Positions 16,522 to 23,261 of a DNA stretch of 64,000 nucleotides are shown here, one piece after another. The stretch covers positions 1,664 to 65,663 of the forward strand of contig QHUM01000046.1 in assembly GCA_003222135.1 (NCBI GenBank), written 5' to 3'. Origin of the DNA: Gemmatimonadota bacterium (lineage in GTDB: Bacteria > Gemmatimonadota > Gemmatimonadetes > Gemmatimonadales > GWC2-71-9). Under the pieces are notes generated by a model. That model saw nothing but the letters and a program-made list of their open reading frames with translations. It was not told the origin of the DNA and made no database searches. Every line of letters starts with the position of its first letter. The first letter of the stretch is position 1. The position numbers were made by a program, and so were the translations under genes.

Positions 16522-17703
16522 ATGCGTCTTCTCAGCGCCCTGTTGGTCGCTCCCGTGTGGCTGGCCGCCCAGAGCGCGCCTTCGGCACCGGCAGACACGA
16601 CGGACAAGAAGGCCGCCGCGCCCCCGCCGCCTGCGCCGACCGTTAACCACCTCGAGACCACGCTGGCCGGCTTCAAGCTGTCCGGCTTCGCGGAGGCGTC
16701 GTACGCCTACTCGGGGCGCAGCCTCGGCGACACGGCGATCGTCGGGCGGCTGTACGATCGGCTGCAGAACCGCTTCGCCCTCAACGCGCTCGCCGTGGTG
16801 CTCGACCGGCCCTACGATCCGGCGAAGTTCAGCGCCGGGTTCCACACCGAGCTATTGGTGGGCCAGGACGCGACCGTAATCCAGTCGAATGGGCTCTTCG
16901 CGGGCGCCGCGACGCCGGTCCCGGTCGACGTGCCACATCTCTACGTCACGTTGAACGTTCCGACCGCCAGTGGCAACGGGCTGCAGTTCAAGGTCGGGCG
17001 GATTCCCACGCTCCTGGGCCTCGAGGTAATCGAGACCTACGCCAACCCCAACTGGTCGGAGGGGAACCAGTTCATCTACGTGGAGAACTTCACCGCGCTC
17101 GGGGTGAGCGTGGAGACGAAGTTCAACAACCATCTGGACGCACAGTTCCGTTTGATCAACGGCTGGGACCAGGTCGCGGACAACAACGGCCGCAAGTCCC
17201 TGATGGGACGAGTCGGGATCTATCCCGATGCGGCGACGTCGCTCGGCATCGTGGGGTTCTGGGGGCCCGAGGAAGCGAACATCAACAATGCCAACCGGTA
17301 CGGCGTCGAGGGGTTGCTGTGGCGCAAGCTCGGCAAGGCGGCCGTCTGGGTTCAGGGGGATTACGGGAAGGAGCAAGCCAACGCGGCGTTGCCCGATCCG
17401 ACGAAGGACGCGCAGTGGGTGGCGCTGGGTGGCTGGGTCACGTACGACTTCACGTCATCCGTCGGTTTGGCGCTGCGCGGCGACTACGTGAACGATCAGG
17501 ACGGCGCCCGCACCAGCGGCGTATTCGGTTTCCCAGCAAACGCGGGACAGAAGTTCGGCAGCGGCACGGCGACGTTGAACATCCGTGCCTGGCCGGACGC
17601 CGTGGTCCGGCCCGAGCTCCGGTACGACCGCTCGACCCTGGCGGCGTTCGCCGGCAAGAAGGATCAGGTCACGTTCGCGCTGGCTGTCGCGTATCTGTAC
17701 TGA
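16522..17703 (+). CDS. outer-membrane beta-barrel porin (OmpL-like putative porin family)
   Basis: Signal peptide MRLLSALLVAPVWLAAQ, an alternating amphipathic pattern and an aromatic C-terminus (VAYLY). It is the third gene after amtB-glnK. Confidence 0.6.
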   Translation: MRLLSALLVAPVWLAAQSAPSAPADTTDKKAAAPPPPAPTVNHLETTLAGFKLSGFAEASYAYSGRSLGDTAIVGRLYDRLQNRFALNALAVVLDRPYDPAKFSAGFHTELLVGQDATVIQSNGLFAGAATPVPVDVPHLYVTLNVPTASGNGLQFKVGRIPTLLGLEVIETYANPNWSEGNQFIYVENFTALGVSVETKFNNHLDAQFRLINGWDQVADNNGRKSLMGRVGIYPDAATSLGIVGFWGPEEANINNANRYGVEGLLWRKLGKAAVWVQGDYGKEQANAALPDPTKDAQWVALGGWVTYDFTSSVGLALRGDYVNDQDGARTSGVFGFPANAGQKFGSGTATLNIRAWPDAVVRPELRYDRSTLAAFAGKKDQVTFALAVAYLY

Positions 17704-18530
17704 GGCTGGCGAAAGAACCGGTACAGCAGCCAGAGGTCGAGCAGGCCCACCGCGCCCAGGACCGAGAACGCGGCGCCGCTGTCGATGAGGTGGAGCTGTC
17801 GCAGCAGGGTCGAGATGCCATAGCCGACGACCCAGGCGTCGAAGCTCATGCAGACGCGCCGGAAGGTTTCCGGTCGCACGTGCCGAATGACGCGCCCGCC
17901 GAGCGGGATCCCGACGATGAGGCTCGGGAGGATGTAGGGGAGCAGACCGGCGCTCTCGACCGTGAACATGCCGGCCACGTAGTACGCCGCGGCGGTGAAG
18001 GTCGATTCGGCGAGCCGGACGAGGCCCAGCCCCGCTCGGAAGTCCTGCTTGGCGAGTCCCTGGTTGCTCAACATCACGGCCAACGGCGGGCCGGAGATCG
18101 TGGTGACGGAGTACAGCACGCCGAGGCCGCTCCCGAAGAGCAGTCCGGCGCGCTGCTCCGCCTTGATCGGTCGGCGAAATCCGGCTGCTTGCAGGAGAAT
18201 CAGCGGCAGCAGGGCGATAAAGGTCGCGAGCTTGAGCCACCCCGGCTGCACCCGGTGCACGAGCGCCGTCCCGAGCACGACGCCCGGTGCCAGGCCGAGC
18301 ACCATCGGCAGGACCCGGCGCCACACCTGGGGGACGCTCGCTCGATTGACCCATAGGACATACGCGTTCAACACCACCTCGACCCATACGAGCGCCGGGT
18401 TGAGGATCCGATTGGTATAGAAGAGGAGGGCCACCGGCGCCGTGATCGACGAGAATCCGTACCCGAGGGATCCGTTGACCGTAGCGGCCAGCAATGTCGT
18501 GAGAACCAGGGCGAACGTGCTCGATGTCAT
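17664..18530 (-). CDS. TauE/SafE-family anion (sulfite/sulfonate) transporter
   Basis: Polytopic membrane protein with GSLGYGFSSITAPVALLF and a second half-repeat GPPLAVML. Start taken at ATG 18530. Confidence 0.8.
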   Translation of the reverse strand: MTSSTFALVLTTLLAATVNGSLGYGFSSITAPVALLFYTNRILNPALVWVEVVLNAYVLWVNRASVPQVWRRVLPMVLGLAPGVVLGTALVHRVQPGWLKLATFIALLPLILLQAAGFRRPIKAEQRAGLLFGSGLGVLYSVTTISGPPLAVMLSNQGLAKQDFRAGLGLVRLAESTFTAAAYYVAGMFTVESAGLLPYILPSLIVGIPLGGRVIRHVRPETFRRVCMSFDAWVVGYGISTLLRQLHLIDSGAAFSVLGAVGLLDLWLLYRFFRQPQYRYATASANVT

Positions 18531-18576
18531 GTCCAGCGAGGTCTGGCTCCCTCTCGTTTCAACGTTGAGGTGATGG

Positions 18577-18618
18577 CACAACAAACAGGCCCGGCGCACC
18601 GTGGGGTGGCCGGGCCTG
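18577..18618 (-). terminator. intrinsic terminator in the tauE leader
   Basis: On the minus strand: CAGGCCCGGC-CACC-CCAC-GGTG-C-GCCGGGCCTG, then TTTGTTGTG. The main stem is 10 bp with a further 4 bp. It ends 46 nt before the tauE ATG. Confidence 0.7.
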
Positions 18619-18653
18619 AAAGCGGCTCGAGTAGCGAAGAAACTAGCGGTTCT

Positions 18654-18746
18654 TCACAACTTCAAGAGGCGCGCTGCCGTGTCCGTCCAACCCTGCAGTT
18701 GGTCGTAGCAACAACAGACCGGGCAACACAGCGGCGTCGCGTGCAT
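18654..18746 (-). CDS. candidate Cys-rich leader peptide (30 aa) for tauE
   Basis: MHATPLCCPVCCCYDQLQGWTDTAARLLKL. Five Cys fall in 7 codons (18708-18728), three of them spelled TGT. The ATG lies about 10 nt after a -10-like box. The stop is 35 nt before the terminator stem. Confidence 0.5.
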   Translation of the reverse strand: MHATPLCCPVCCCYDQLQGWTDTAARLLKL

Positions 18747-18756
18747 GTGATCGGGC

Positions 18757-18785
18757 AAGCTAGGCCGGGCGTTGCGGCGTGTCAA
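18757..18785 (-). promoter_or_regulatory. sigma70-like promoter for the minus-strand leader
   Basis: On the minus strand: TTGACA (18785-18780), a 17-nt spacer, then TAGCTT (18762-18757). Confidence 0.35.
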
Positions 18786-18794
18786 CCGGGCGGG

Positions 18795-18823
18795 TTGACA
18801 GCCGAGCGCTCGGTCCGTAAATA
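18795..18823 (+). promoter_or_regulatory. sigma70-like promoter for the plus-strand leader
   Basis: TTGACA (18795-18800), a 17-nt spacer containing the 12-nt palindrome CCGAGCGCTCGG, then TAAATA (18818-18823). Confidence 0.35.
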
Positions 18824-18833
18824 ACCGGCATCC

Positions 18834-18950
18834 ATGATGACGCACCGCGCCTGCCGCCGTTGTTGTCCGTGTTGTCGGACGATCGACGCTCGCTCCCCGG
18901 GGAGCGGACGCGGTTGCGGCGCTCGAGTGCCGGCCGGCAACGGATGCTGA
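18834..18950 (+). CDS. candidate Cys-rich leader peptide (38 aa) for cysC-cysH-sat
   Basis: MMTHRACRRCCPCCRTIDARSPGSGRGCGARVPAGNGC has 7 Cys, five of them in 8 codons (18852-18875) and four spelled TGT. The ATG lies about 10 nt after the -10 box. Confidence 0.5.
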   Translation: MMTHRACRRCCPCCRTIDARSPGSGRGCGARVPAGNGC

Positions 18951-18977
18951 CCGACTAGTTTAAACGGCACGCGCGTC

Positions 18978-19025
18978 GCAGATCGGGCCCGCTTCCCAAG
19001 AGGGAAGCGGGCCCGCTGCTTTTTT
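18978..19025 (+). terminator. intrinsic terminator in the cysC leader
   Basis: GCAG-(AT)-CGGGCCCGCTTCCC-AAGA-GGGAAGCGGGCCCG-CTGC followed by TTTTTT. It ends 21 nt before the cysC ATG, which has its own GGAGG. Confidence 0.8.
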
Positions 19026-19046: not shown

Positions 19047-19628
19047 ATGGCCCAAGTCGAGTTGGCGAGCGGCAGACGGATCAGGCAGGCGTCGGGCTTT
19101 ACGCTGTGGTTCACCGGCCTGTCAGGCGCGGGAAAGTCCACGCTTGCCGCCGCCGTCAGCCGGGAGCTGCGCCGTCACGGGATCGCGGTCGAAGTCCTGG
19201 ACGGCGACGAAGTGCGCCAGAATCTGTCACAGGGGCTGGGTTTCTCACGTGAAGACCGCGACACCAACATCCGCCGCATCGGCTACGTGGCGAGGCTGCT
19301 CACGCGGAACGGGGTCGCGGTGATCACCGCCGCCATCTCTCCGTACCGCGCGGTGCGCGACGAAGTGCGCCGGGAAGTGGGCGCGTTTGTCGAGGTGCAC
19401 GTGAAGGCCTCGCTCGACGAGTGTATTCGGCGCGATGCGAAGGGGCTGTACCGGCGGGCGCTGGCGGGCGAGATCCCCCACTTCACTGGGGTCTCCGACC
19501 CGTACGAGGAGCCGCTGCGACCCGAGCTGGTCGTGGACACCGAGCGGGAGGACGTCGGCGACAGCGCCACGCGGGTGATCGAGCGCCTCGTCGAGCTCGG
19601 CTATCTCCGGAGCGCGGCCGATGCCTAG
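19047..19628 (+). CDS. cysC: adenylyl-sulfate (APS) kinase
   Basis: P-loop [18 protein letters not shown], plus [27 protein letters not shown]. Confidence 0.95.
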
Positions 19629-20304
19629 CCCGGCGGAGGTGCGCGCGCACGCTCGGGCGCTGCACGGGGCGAGCCCCGAAGCGATTCTGACGTGGGCCGT
19701 CGCGACGTTCCCGCGAAAGGCGGCGCTCACCGTGAGCTTCGGCGGTGGCGGTGTGGTGCTCGCGCACCTGATCGGTCGCATCGACCGGACGGTGCCCGTG
19801 ATGTTCCTGGACACCGGGTTCCATTTCCCGGAGACGTACGCCTTCAAAGACCGGTTCGTCAGGCAATACGGCCTCAATCTCGTCGAGCTGCCTCCGTTGA
19901 CCGACCCCGGACCGCTGTACCGGACCGATCCCGATCGCTGCTGCTGGATCCGTAAGGTCGAGCCGCTCGAGCGGGCGCTCGCGGGGTTCGACGCCTGGAT
20001 CAGCGCCGTGCGGCAGGATCAGACCGACCACCGCGCGGCGACCGAGCTACTCGAGTATCACGAGGTCGCCGGACGCCCCATCGTGAAGGTGTTTCCGCTC
20101 GCTCACTGGAGTCGGGCGGACGTGTGGGACTACATCCGGGAGAACGACGTTCCCTATCACCCGCTGCTCGATCAGGGCTATACGAGTATCGGGTGCTGGC
20201 CCTGCACCAGACCGACGACAGCGGGGGAGCCCGAGCGGGCGGGCCGCTGGGCCGGCACCAGCAAGACCGAGTGCGGGCTCCACACCTTCAGCGTGAAGCG
20301 ATGA
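19621..20304 (+). CDS. cysH: APS/PAPS reductase (Fe-S, APS-reductase-type Cys pattern)
   Basis: [13 protein letters not shown], the Cys pairs [12 protein letters not shown] and GCWPCT, and the catalytic KTECGLH. 8-nt overlap with cysC. Confidence 0.9.
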
Positions 20305-21431
20305 GCGTGGACTTGGTCAACCGCGTGATCCCGGAAGACGAACGGGCCGCCGCGCTCGAACGCGCGGGCCGCCTGCCGTCGCTCACGCTCGATCCCCACA
20401 CGATGGCCGATCTCGAGCTGATCGCGACCGGGGGATACAGCCCGCTCACGGGCTTCCTGGGCTCGGCCGACTACCAGCGCGTGATCCACGAGATGCGCCT
20501 CGCCGACGGGCGGCCGTGGCCGCTACCCATCACGCTGCGCGTTGCCGTGGCGCCGGGATTGGGCGATGCGGTGGCGCTGAAGGCACCGGACGGGTCCATC
20601 GTCGGCCTGCTCGACGTGCGGGACGTGTACACCGCTTCCCGCCCGGAGGAGGCGCAGCTGGTCTTTGGCACGCGCGATGCTGCGCATCCCGGCGTGGCCC
20701 AGCTGTACGGGCAGGGCGATCTCGCCGTCGGTGGCGAGGTCTGGTTGCTGCGTCGCACCGTGCCGCCGTTCCCCGAGCTCGCGCTCGATCCAGCCGACAC
20801 GCGGCGGATCTTCGCCGAGCGCGGCTGGCGCACGGTGGTCGGCTTCCAGACTCGCAATCCCGTCCATCGCGCGCACGAGTACATCCAGAAAGCGGCGCTC
20901 GAAATCGTGGACGGCCTGTTGCTGCACCCGCTCGTCGGCCCGACCAAGGAGGACGACATTCCCGCGGACGTCCGCGTTCGGAGCTACCGGGTCCTGCTCG
21001 AGCGCTATTACCCGCCCGACCGGGTACTCCTCGCCGCGTTTCCCGCCGCCATGCGGTACGCGGGGCCGCGGGAAGCCGTCTTCCACGCGCTGGTGCGCAG
21101 GAACTACGGCTGCACCCACTTCATCGTCGGCCGCGACCACGCGGGCGTGGGGAGCTACTACGGCCCGTACGACGCCCAACGGATTTTCCAGCGGTTCCGA
21201 CCGGATGAGCTGGGCATCGAGCCGCTCTGCTTCGAGCACACGTTCTACTGTCGCCGCTGCGGGGCGATGGCTTCGCCCAAGACGTGCCCGCATGACGGAG
21301 ACGCGCGGGTGACGCTCTCCGGCACCAAAGTGCGCGAGCTATTGCGGAGCGGCGAGTTGCCGCCGCCCGAGTTCAGCCGCCCGGAGGTAGCCCGCGTGCT
21401 CGCTGACGGCTTAAAGGAGATACTCGCATGA
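20301..21431 (+). CDS. sat: sulfate adenylyltransferase (ATP sulfurylase, Sat type)
   Basis: Motifs [13 protein letters not shown] and [13 protein letters not shown] 20301 forms an ATGA overlap with the cysH stop. Confidence 0.9.
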
Positions 21432-21563: not shown

Positions 21564-23114
21564 TCACCCCCGCCGCCGTAACAACGGCAGCTCGAGCGCA
21601 TCCCGCAGTGCCTGCCAGCTAGCCTCGAGGATGTTCTCCGAGCAGCCGACGGTGCTCCAGCGCTCGTCGCCGCGCGCCGACTCGATGACGACTCGGGGTT
21701 TCGCCGCGGTGCCGAGGTGATCGTCCACGATTCGGACCTTGTAGTCCACGAGGCGCACGTCGGCGAGTTGCGGGTAGTGCGGCACGAGCGTCTCCCGGAC
21801 CGCGCGGTCGAGCGCGTTCACCGGTCCGGCTCCCTCGGCCGTGGCGCGCGTCACCACGTCGCCGACGCGTAGCGTCACGCTCGCCTGTGCCCGCACGGCG
21901 CCACAGCGGTTCTCGACCATGACGGTGTACTCGATCATCTCGAACGGCGCTCGATAGTCGGCGGACGAGCGCCGCAGCAGCATCTCGAACGAGCCTTCGG
22001 CGCCCTCGAACTGGTAGCCGGCGTGCTCGAGCTCCTTGATCCGCTGGAGCACGGCGGCCTCGCGCTCGCCGGCCGGCACGCCCAGCGCCGCGGCACGGAG
22101 GCGCACGGTGCGCCGCCCGGCGAGTTCGCTCACCACTACGCGCATCTCATTTCCCACGAGCGCCGGATCGACGTGCTGGTAGCTCTCGGGAAGCTCGGCC
22201 ACGGCGGCGACGTGTATCCCGCCCTTGTGTGCGAAGGCGCTCCGGCCCACGTAGGGGGCGTGGGGATCGGGGTTCAGGTTCGCGACGGCCGCCACGAAGT
22301 GCGCGGCGTCGCGCAGCTCCCGCAGCCGTTCCGGCGCGAGCACCTGGTAGTCGAGCTTGAGCTGTAGCGTGGCGATCAGCTGGACCAGGTCAAGGTTTCC
22401 GCACCGCTCACCGTATCCATTGAAGGTCCCCTGGACGTGGACGCAGCCGGCCTCGACCGCGGCGAGGGCATTCGCGAGTGCCAGGCCGCTGTCGTTGTGC
22501 GGGTGGATGCCCAGGGGTGCCGTGATCCGGTCCCGCACCTCCCAGACGCGGGCCTCCACGTCGGTGGGGAGGGCGCCGCCGTTGGTATCGCACAGCACGA
22601 CGCAGTCGGCACCCGCGCCCGCGGCGGCGTCGAGCGTCGCCAAGGCATATCCCGGATCGAGCCGATAGCCGTCGAAGAAGTGCTCGGCGTCGTAGATCAC
22701 TTCCTTGCCCAGCGCTTTGAAATGGGTGACGCTGTCGGCGATCATGCGGAGGTTCTCGTCGCGGCTCGTCCGGAGCACGCGGTCGACGTGCAGCGTCGAG
22801 CTCTTGCCCACAAGCGTCACCACCGGCGTCCCGGCTTCGACCAGGGCGCGACAGTTCCCGTCCTCCGCACAGTCGCCGCCCGCGTGCCGGGTCATACCGA
22901 ACGCCGCGATCTTCGCATGGTGCAGCGGGACGCCGGCGATGCGCCGGAAGAACTCCGCGTCCTTGGGATTCGAGCCGGGCCATCCGCCCTCGATGTAGCC
23001 GATCCCGAGCGCGTCCAGCCGGCAGGCGATCCTGACCTTGTCCTCCGCCGAGAGGGAGAGGCCTTCGCGCTGCGTGCCGTCTCGCAGGGTCGTGTCGTAC
23101 AGGATCGGGTTCAT
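21564..23114 (-). CDS. cimA: citramalate synthase / 2-isopropylmalate-synthase-family enzyme
   Basis: MNPILYDTTLRDGTQREGLSLSAEDKVRIACRLDALGIGYIEGGWPGSNPKDAEFF and HPHNDSGLALAN. Length and C-terminal regulatory domain fit CimA (TIGR00977-like). GGAGAG precedes ATG 23114. Confidence 0.8.
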   Translation of the reverse strand: MNPILYDTTLRDGTQREGLSLSAEDKVRIACRLDALGIGYIEGGWPGSNPKDAEFFRRIAGVPLHHAKIAAFGMTRHAGGDCAEDGNCRALVEAGTPVVTLVGKSSTLHVDRVLRTSRDENLRMIADSVTHFKALGKEVIYDAEHFFDGYRLDPGYALATLDAAAGAGADCVVLCDTNGGALPTDVEARVWEVRDRITAPLGIHPHNDSGLALANALAAVEAGCVHVQGTFNGYGERCGNLDLVQLIATLQLKLDYQVLAPERLRELRDAAHFVAAVANLNPDPHAPYVGRSAFAHKGGIHVAAVAELPESYQHVDPALVGNEMRVVVSELAGRRTVRLRAAALGVPAGEREAAVLQRIKELEHAGYQFEGAEGSFEMLLRRSSADYRAPFEMIEYTVMVENRCGAVRAQASVTLRVGDVVTRATAEGAGPVNALDRAVRETLVPHYPQLADVRLVDYKVRIVDDHLGTAAKPRVVIESARGDERWSTVGCSENILEASWQALRDALELPLLRRRG

Positions 23115-23146
23115 GTCGCTCTCCGTGTGTTCCACAGCCTATCGAC

Positions 23147-23177
23147 AAAAAAGTCGGCCTCTCGATGTGAGAGGCCG
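23147..23177 (-). terminator. intrinsic terminator after gltB
   Basis: On the minus strand: CGGCCTCTC-ACATC-GAGAGGCCG followed by ACTTTTTT. It lies 85 nt after the gltB stop. Confidence 0.75.
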
Positions 23178-23261
23178 CGTTGCCCGTGGCGCCGCGCTGT
23201 GCTCGTCAGCGGAACGCCGGCACGCTGCCTCTCGTCGAACGCGGGGTGGCGATGGCAATCA

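Follow-up and report, generated by a model that had tools for sequence, protein, structure and literature searches.

A mirror-symmetric divergent promoter region in a Gemmatimonadota bacterium as two probable cysteine attenuator modules placed back to back

What does the mirror symmetry of a divergent promoter region reflect? The question is raised by a locus in a Gemmatimonadota bacterium (GCA_003222135.1), at which the cysC-cysH-sat operon is transcribed away from the gene of a 289-aa membrane protein, and where the two promoters meet in an inverted repeat. The region lies in a stretch of 64,000 nt (contig QHUM01000046.1, forward-strand positions 1,664–65,663; 69% G+C), referred to here as the window and used for all coordinates unless a relative is named. 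The symmetry was put down in an initial annotation either to duplication and inversion of one regulatory module, or to one regulator acting in both directions on top of attenuation. We consider it very probable that the region consists instead of two independent cysteine attenuator modules placed back to back: the repeat is then two −35 regions that face away from each other, and the symmetry a by-product, arising because both promoters share the same geometry.

The locus was compared with about 90 related loci. Relatives of the cysC leader were collected by scanning metagenomes for exact matches to an 18-mer of the plus-side leader, together with genome loci, and comprise about 78 distinct copies of the module with 45 distinct promoter spacers. 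Since the 18-mer lies in the antiterminator strand described below, the cysC-side set is biased towards invariance of that strand. Two relatives recur in what follows: L110, with 98.5% DNA identity to the window, and L186, with 88%.

Two promoters in one inverted repeat

The elements of the promoter core are:

18780–18800, both strands: inverted repeat TGTCAACC-GGGCG-GGTTGACA with 8-nt arms, comprising two back-to-back −35 regions
18795–18823, plus strand: cysC-side promoter (TTGACA at 18795–18800, 17-nt spacer, TAAATA at 18818–18823)
18757–18785, minus strand: permease-side promoter (TTGACA at 18785–18780, 17-nt spacer, TAGCTT at 18762–18757)

The anatomy set out in the initial annotation is present: the inverted repeat GTCAACC-GGGCG-GGTTGAC occupies 18781–18799, both promoters have 17-nt spacers, and the leader ATGs at 18834 (plus) and 18746 (minus) each lie 44 nt from position 18790. 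From −10 box to ATG the distance is 10 nt on either side, an equality that amounts to a single coincidence; relatives range over 7–11 nt. The octamer GGTTGACA occurs twice in 64 kb, both times in the repeat, and the repeat holds two of the five TTGACA hexamers. A −35/−10 pair directly before a short open reading frame (ORF) is found at just these two sites, even with one −35 mismatch allowed; no other promoter-plus-short-ORF modules or amino-acid-run leaders were found in the window.

The relatives bear out the reading of the repeat arms as −35 hexamers, one for each of two divergent promoters. Across the approximately 78 distinct cysC-side sequences TTGACA is kept (the exception being TTGACG, in two loci), and is followed by a spacer whose length is 17 nt or, in the minority, 18 nt, and by a −10 box that is mostly TAAATA, with TACATA, TAAAGT or TAAGCT in a few. 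The sequence of the spacer, on the other hand, takes 45 distinct forms. Constant hexamers and constant spacer length, combined with variable spacer sequence, are the signature of a promoter, and of a sigma-70-type promoter at that (−10 boxes TAAATA, TACATA and, in the histidine leader described below, TAGTTA). Fourteen relatives show the permease-side architecture ahead of their own homologous leader.

The distance from −10 box to ATG is distributed over the cysC-side loci as follows:

8 nt: most cysC-side loci
7 nt: a second group (L005 type)
10 nt: the window and L110
11 nt: L186 and the L098 group

The description of the leaders as near-leaderless is therefore a reasonable one: the leader ORFs begin 6–11 nt past the −10 box, where a Shine-Dalgarno sequence would not fit. 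Neither leader leaves room for one, while the start codon of cysC is preceded by GGAGG at a distance of 8 nt, and from this we infer initiation of the leaderless type, or from a very short leader, with a predicted 5' untranslated region (5' UTR) of 0 to about 5 nt.

Leaders, terminators and a candidate switch

On the cysC side the promoter is followed by:

18834–18950, plus strand: leader ORF of 38 codons plus stop, MMTHRACRRCCPCCRTIDARSPGSGRGCGARVPAGNGC, with Cys codons 7, 10, 11, 13, 14, 28 and 38
18899–18921, plus strand: predicted antiterminator 5' strand GGGGAGCGGACGCGGTTGCGGCG, inside the leader ORF (codons 22–30)
18955–18961, plus strand: CTAGTTT, part of a conserved GAYTAG..TGTAAAC element with stops in other frames
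18984–19025, plus strand: intrinsic terminator with a 14-bp G+C-rich stem, a 4-nt loop and a CTGCTTTTTT tail
19047–19628, plus strand: cysC (Pfam and NCBIfam)
19621–20304, plus strand: cysH (Pfam and NCBIfam)
20301–21431, plus strand: sat (Pfam and NCBIfam)

On the permease side it is followed by:

18654–18746, minus strand: leader ORF of 30 codons plus stop, MHATPLCCPVCCCYDQLQGWTDTAARLLKL, with Cys codons 7, 8, 11, 12 and 13
18681–18695, minus strand: predicted antiterminator 5' strand CAGGGTTGGACGGAC, inside the leader ORF (codons 18–22), conserved in 15 sequences
18640–18646, minus strand: CTAGTTT, after the leader stop, holding a TAG in the +2 frame
18577–18618, minus strand: predicted terminator hairpin CAGGCCCGGCCACC..GGTGCGCCGGGCCTG (hairpin 18586–18618), then TTTGTTGTG
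17664–18531, minus strand: 289-aa membrane protein, probably a divergent TauE/SafE (TSUP)-like permease to judge from PF01925 matches of distant relatives

Each leader has the composition of an attenuator leader peptide: seven of 38 codons are Cys codons ahead of cysC-cysH-sat, and five of 30 ahead of the permease gene. Both peptides belong to conserved families in which the Cys runs are kept as well, the permease-side family being exemplified by MRATPLRRPICCCCDQPQGWTD. Between leader ORF and first gene there is, on both sides, a terminator. Translational attenuation would entail the lack of a terminator and the unmasking of a ribosome-binding site; here both leaders precede terminator hairpins with U-runs, and the design is transcriptional. 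On the minus side the hairpin is followed by runs of T6–T8 in relatives; in the window a simple terminator scan made no call there.

The predicted folds of the two transcripts are better than those of shuffled sequences (z = −3.5 and −4.1). When the plus transcript is cut after the 5' arm of the terminator, GGGGAGCGGACGCGGUUGCGGCG (18899–18921) pairs with CGUCGCAGAUCGGGCCCGCUUCCC (18974–18997), and this antiterminator helix is also the RNAalifold consensus of 68 cysC-side sequences; its 5' strand was invariant in the first four sequences aligned. The consensus of 15 permease leaders is an analogous helix, in which GGGUUGGACGG pairs with the 5' arm of the terminator. In a model that masks the bases covered by the ribosome, a ribosome at Cys codons 7–14 of the plus-side leader leaves the helix in place, while a ribosome on codons 19–34 removes it; on the minus side the antiterminator forms with a ribosome at Cys codons 11–13. 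Equilibrium folding with a masked ribosome, which gave the terminator in every state, was replaced by the folding of cut transcripts.

These features suggest the following mechanism. Each of the two modules would be an independent and portable unit made up of promoter, Cys-rich leader ORF, antiterminator strand and intrinsic terminator. Transcription would start from a strong promoter of the housekeeping type ((G/A)(G/A)TTGACA, 17 nt, TAnnT(A/T)), and translation from a leader start codon 10 nt past the −10 box, with no Shine-Dalgarno sequence and a 5' UTR of at most about 5 nt. The G-rich antiterminator strand would lie within the leader ORF, downstream of the Cys codons. With Cys-tRNA plentiful, the ribosome would cover this strand as polymerase makes the terminator, and cysC-cysH-sat or the permease gene would be off. 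With Cys-tRNA scarce, the ribosome would stall at the Cys codons and the free antiterminator strand would capture the 5' arm of the terminator, resulting in read-through. Both directions would thus be co-regulated via charged tRNA-Cys on ribosomes, and not via a DNA-binding protein at the repeat: stalling at Cys codons is, on this model, the most likely source of co-regulation.

A number of results weigh against this scheme. Neither promoter was called by a generic sigma-70 scan, since the −10 boxes depart from TATAAT (TAAATA is without the T at position 6, and TAGCTT matches three of six positions); we disregarded this negative in view of the conservation of the hexamers seen in phylogenetic footprinting. 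The 10-nt distance from −10 box to ATG in the window exceeds the 6–8 nt of most relatives, and the transcripts may not be strictly leaderless. On the minus side the U-tract of the window (TTTGTTGTG) is weak and the masking model is less clean. The terminator always wins at equilibrium, so the switch must be kinetic. Moreover, the masking model forms the antiterminator also when no ribosome is present or when one sits at the stop codon; termination under plenty would therefore need timing and 5'-proximal trapping structures, and would have to rely on tight coupling of ribosome and polymerase together with 5'-proximal hairpins such as CGCUCCCCGGGGAGCG (18891–18906) and CCAACUGCAGGGUUGG (18687–18702). 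Lastly, a search for covariation in both leader families showed the pairs to be nearly invariant, with no compensatory changes.

One change in the paired region stands apart. In four loci (L087, L160, L168 and L198; alignment A3, columns 72/170) the 5' arm of the terminator reads GCTCCCC instead of GCTTCCC, which turns a G-U pair of the antiterminator into G-C and breaks a U-A pair of the terminator. The change is one-sided; it favors the antiterminator model and is no proof of it.

The heptamer CTAGTTT, pointed out in the initial annotation as common to both leaders, does follow both stop codons (18955–18961, plus; 18646–18640, minus), at distances of 4 and 7 nt; these are the only two copies in the window, against 0.55 expected. 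In most relatives the permease-side heptamer reads CTAAGCC. In most cysC relatives GAYTAG provides a +2-frame stop 11 nt past the leader stop, often with an in-frame TAA at +18. Just past the leader stop, other-frame stop codons form a conserved cluster, at 18948–18965 (plus) and 18640–18656 (minus) in the window and at the corresponding position in relatives. The heptamer may serve as a backup stop for shifted or read-through ribosomes, or belong to a conserved loop.

Module portability and the origin of the symmetry

Both modules are also found in other company. The divergent partners of the cysC module, with the gap between the two −35 hexamers, are:

His leader before hisG (MQRTRSHHRHHHHHP), gap 15–17 nt: about 51 loci
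His leader before hisG, gap 26–40 nt: 23 loci
permease Cys leader, gap 37 nt: L098, L179, L191 and L195
permease Cys leader, gap 9 nt: the window, L110 and L186
no divergent partner: 10 loci

The permease module in turn stands alone in relatives, behind a DUF2911 gene or another gene. The approximately 90 loci retain both hexamers and a spacer length of 17–18 nt, yet mirror geometry is not kept across them: in the group with the 37-nt gap the two sides are unequal (spacer plus −10-to-ATG distance 18+11 nt vs 17+7 nt), and in L186 the ATGs lie 45 and 44 nt from the center, so that the exact mirror is lost. Because the lineage with the 37-nt gap is a sister lineage with unmirrored geometry, the tight juxtaposition in the window looks like the outcome of a late contraction of intergenic DNA. 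In L098 (3950–4010) 33 nt separate the arms of the repeat, compared to GGGCG in the window (18780–18800), which suggests that the lineage of the window acquired its tight mirror by losing about 28 nt.

The histidine leader is a module of the same kind. It precedes hisG (e.g. MERTRLHHRHHHHHPSIGGSRRRTQGTE) back to back with the cysC leader promoter in L003 (2475–2700, minus strand) and about 74 other loci, and has its own promoter (TTGACA-18-TAGTTA-6-ATG) and terminator; it has no match in Rfam, and no His-run leader occurs in the window itself. In a few metagenome contigs (L132, L159, L173, L188 and L196) the Cys or His leader is frameshifted or truncated, and a His run may, for instance, read TTITTR. 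Such forms probably reflect indels that arose in homopolymer-like runs during sequencing or assembly, and not biology. In five loci (L001, at 1029–1034, L002, L125, L177 and L180) the −35 hexamer of the permease leader overlaps the TGA stop of the upstream co-directional DUF2911 gene (..GGTTGACAC..), and the promoter thus starts inside the end of a coding region.

A further possibility is that the 9-bp packing, which would put the start sites about 80–88 bp apart, couples the two promoters through steric competition between polymerases or negative supercoiling, as a layer added to attenuation. Coupling of divergent promoters by supercoiling is established in other bacteria, the −40 to −60 region of each promoter is here occupied by the other promoter, and the 9-nt gap is kept in the window, L110 and L186 despite 12% DNA divergence. 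However, three sequences so close to one another say little about selection, and most relatives work with other gaps, other partners or no divergent partner, so that the packing is not required for the function of the modules. Coupling is for these reasons an unlikely addition. That the contraction to 9 bp itself couples both Cys-controlled operons at initiation, via polymerase competition or divergent supercoiling, also seems improbable; if true, it would place a promoter-level layer on two leaderless Cys attenuators, in a phylum without described attenuators.

Local duplication and inversion of a single promoter-leader-terminator module would account for the shared architecture and geometry of the two sides, and their global alignment indeed outscores shuffled sequences (whole module, z = 8; from the ATG onward, z = 4.7), with antiterminator strands that are loosely alike (GGGGAGCGGACGCGG vs GGGTTGGACGGACACGG). 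The similarity is confined, however, to the consensus promoter and the run of Cys codons, both of which would be required by function in any case: past the Cys run z drops to 1.0, with 82 of 500 shuffles scoring as high, which is not significant. In addition, both modules are found separately, with other neighbors, in many relatives, and the sister lineage with the same gene pair has the 37-nt gap and unmirrored geometry noted above. The proposal of a duplication in place thus fares poorly, and we regard it as unlikely. The two leader families may nonetheless share an ancient origin.

The last alternative makes use of one more feature:

18802–18813, unstranded: perfect 12-nt palindrome CCGAGCGCTCGG, inside the plus-side spacer and specific to the window

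It is very improbable that this palindrome, the inverted repeat TGTCAACC-N5-GGTTGACA, or the two together form the operator of a dimeric regulator that serves both directions on top of attenuation. The repeat is perfect over its 8-nt arms, the 9-nt hexamer gap is retained in L110 and L186, and the palindrome, present in the 17-nt spacer as annotated, has p ~0.03 given the composition of that spacer. Yet perfect 12-nt palindromes number 61 in the window; this one is disrupted in both L110 (CCGAACGCTCGC) and L186 (CCGAGCGCTCGC), the closest relatives, and is missing in all others, an outcome that the initial annotation had named as refuting its proposal, and the 45 spacers show no enrichment of dyad symmetry (best arm mean 3.44 nt, compared to 3.40 nt when shuffled). 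As for the repeat, a palindromic operator would conserve half-sites and spacing; here the half-sites are kept and the spacing is not. The gap varies (9, 15–17, 26–40 or 37 nt), helical phase is not constant, each arm is found singly as the −35 element of stand-alone modules, and the same arms lie between the cysC leader and the histidine leader, two modules for which a shared regulator of sulfur genes would have no rationale. With gap and phase varying, and the same arms flanking Cys and His modules, a single protein site over both arms is very unlikely. Further copies of the two motifs, which the initial annotation proposed to look for upstream of other sulfur genes in the genome, did not occur beyond chance in the 64-kb window for either repeat or palindrome.

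Two back-to-back attenuator modules, then, leave the repeat with a simple explanation. The −35 elements of back-to-back divergent promoters, which share one upstream region, form a perfect or imperfect inverted repeat simply as both match one consensus, and such promoters are a general class of bacterial gene organization, reportedly described by Beck and Warren in 1988. Compared to that class, the present pair is unusually tight (9 bp), has two perfect consensus hexamers, and leads on both sides into attenuator leaders. The consequence is a deflationary one: a striking mirror symmetry comes down to two like promoters that point in opposite directions, and relatives do not conserve the proposed operator.

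Relation to known systems and neighboring features

The proposed switches resemble the classical attenuators of proteobacteria (trp, his, leu, thr, ilv) in having a leader ORF rich in cognate codons, predicted alternative antiterminator and terminator helices, and an intrinsic terminator before the first biosynthetic gene. They differ in that cysteine would be the amino acid sensed, the targets are sulfate activation and reduction plus a permease, and the phylum is Gemmatimonadota; also, the leader starts 10 nt past the −10 box without a Shine-Dalgarno sequence, the predicted antiterminator strand lies inside the ORF, and there is no matching Rfam family.

A second likeness is to the mycobacterial 'Cys ribulon' of short, leaderless polycysteine ORFs (Canestrari et al., bioRxiv 10.1101/834739; an earlier prediction is in PMC1262725), in which leaders with Cys codons coordinate several operons without a transcription factor. 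There, too, Cys-rich leaders precede cysteine and sulfur operons, and stalling coordinates the operons. The mycobacterial leaders act on translation and without terminators, whereas here a strong intrinsic terminator and a conserved antiterminator would go with each leader; and while the mycobacterial leaders are without a 5' UTR, leaderless initiation and start sites are predicted here from geometry. By analogy, the ribulon idea, that operons are coordinated via stalling at Cys codons, would explain joint control in two directions without a shared DNA site.

The uORFC-8-2 motif upstream of cysS in Rhodobacterales, a proposed cysteine-responsive transcription attenuator (PMC8632094), likewise combines an upstream ORF with Cys codons, a terminator stem and a U-run. 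It differs in having two tandem Cys codons, in preceding cysS, and in its alphaproteobacterial host; there is no sequence relationship, and no back-to-back promoters are described for it.

The comparisons document what would be a family of cysteine-sensing leader-peptide switches of the terminator–antiterminator type in Gemmatimonadota, with relatives predicted to sense histidine. The family is absent from Rfam (searches with the window region and three relatives gave nothing relevant), and no paper describing it was found; a literature search on attenuators, leaderless mRNAs or start sites in Gemmatimonadota, a soil phylum with almost no experimental genetics, likewise found nothing relevant. 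Each module brings with it a consensus promoter that borders on the start codon of its leader, and moves between genomic contexts as a unit. The approximately 90 natural variants are thus usable for defining the promoter rules of Gemmatimonadota and for testing leaderless-type initiation of leaders.

Of the genes downstream, cysC, cysH and sat make up a sulfate-activation and reduction operon, in which cysH and sat overlap in ATGA; the CysC protein is 79–81% identical to proteins from metagenome-assembled genomes of Gemmatimonadota. The 289-aa membrane protein has no direct match in Pfam or NCBIfam, three word-index homologues, and 25 detectable relatives among 1.8 billion representatives. One distant relative (P0025) matches PF01925 at 44 bits (gathering cut-off 32.6), three others do so below threshold, and the window protein itself gives no match; one distant relative (P0011) carries a PAPS reductase domain. 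Most likely the protein is a divergent sulfur-anion permease, probably of an unannotated family, and the locus would tie this TauE/SafE-like membrane protein to sulfur assimilation.

Elsewhere in the window, a strong terminator-like hairpin (GCGGCCTCTC..GAGAGGCCG) with a T6 run lies at 23136–23260 (minus strand), before the leuA-like gene at 21564–23135, and directly precedes the start of this 2-isopropylmalate synthase gene. A short ORF (VMIAIATPRSTRGSVPAFR) is found before the hairpin; no Leu-rich leader is seen in this upstream segment, and the hairpin may be the terminator of an upstream gene.

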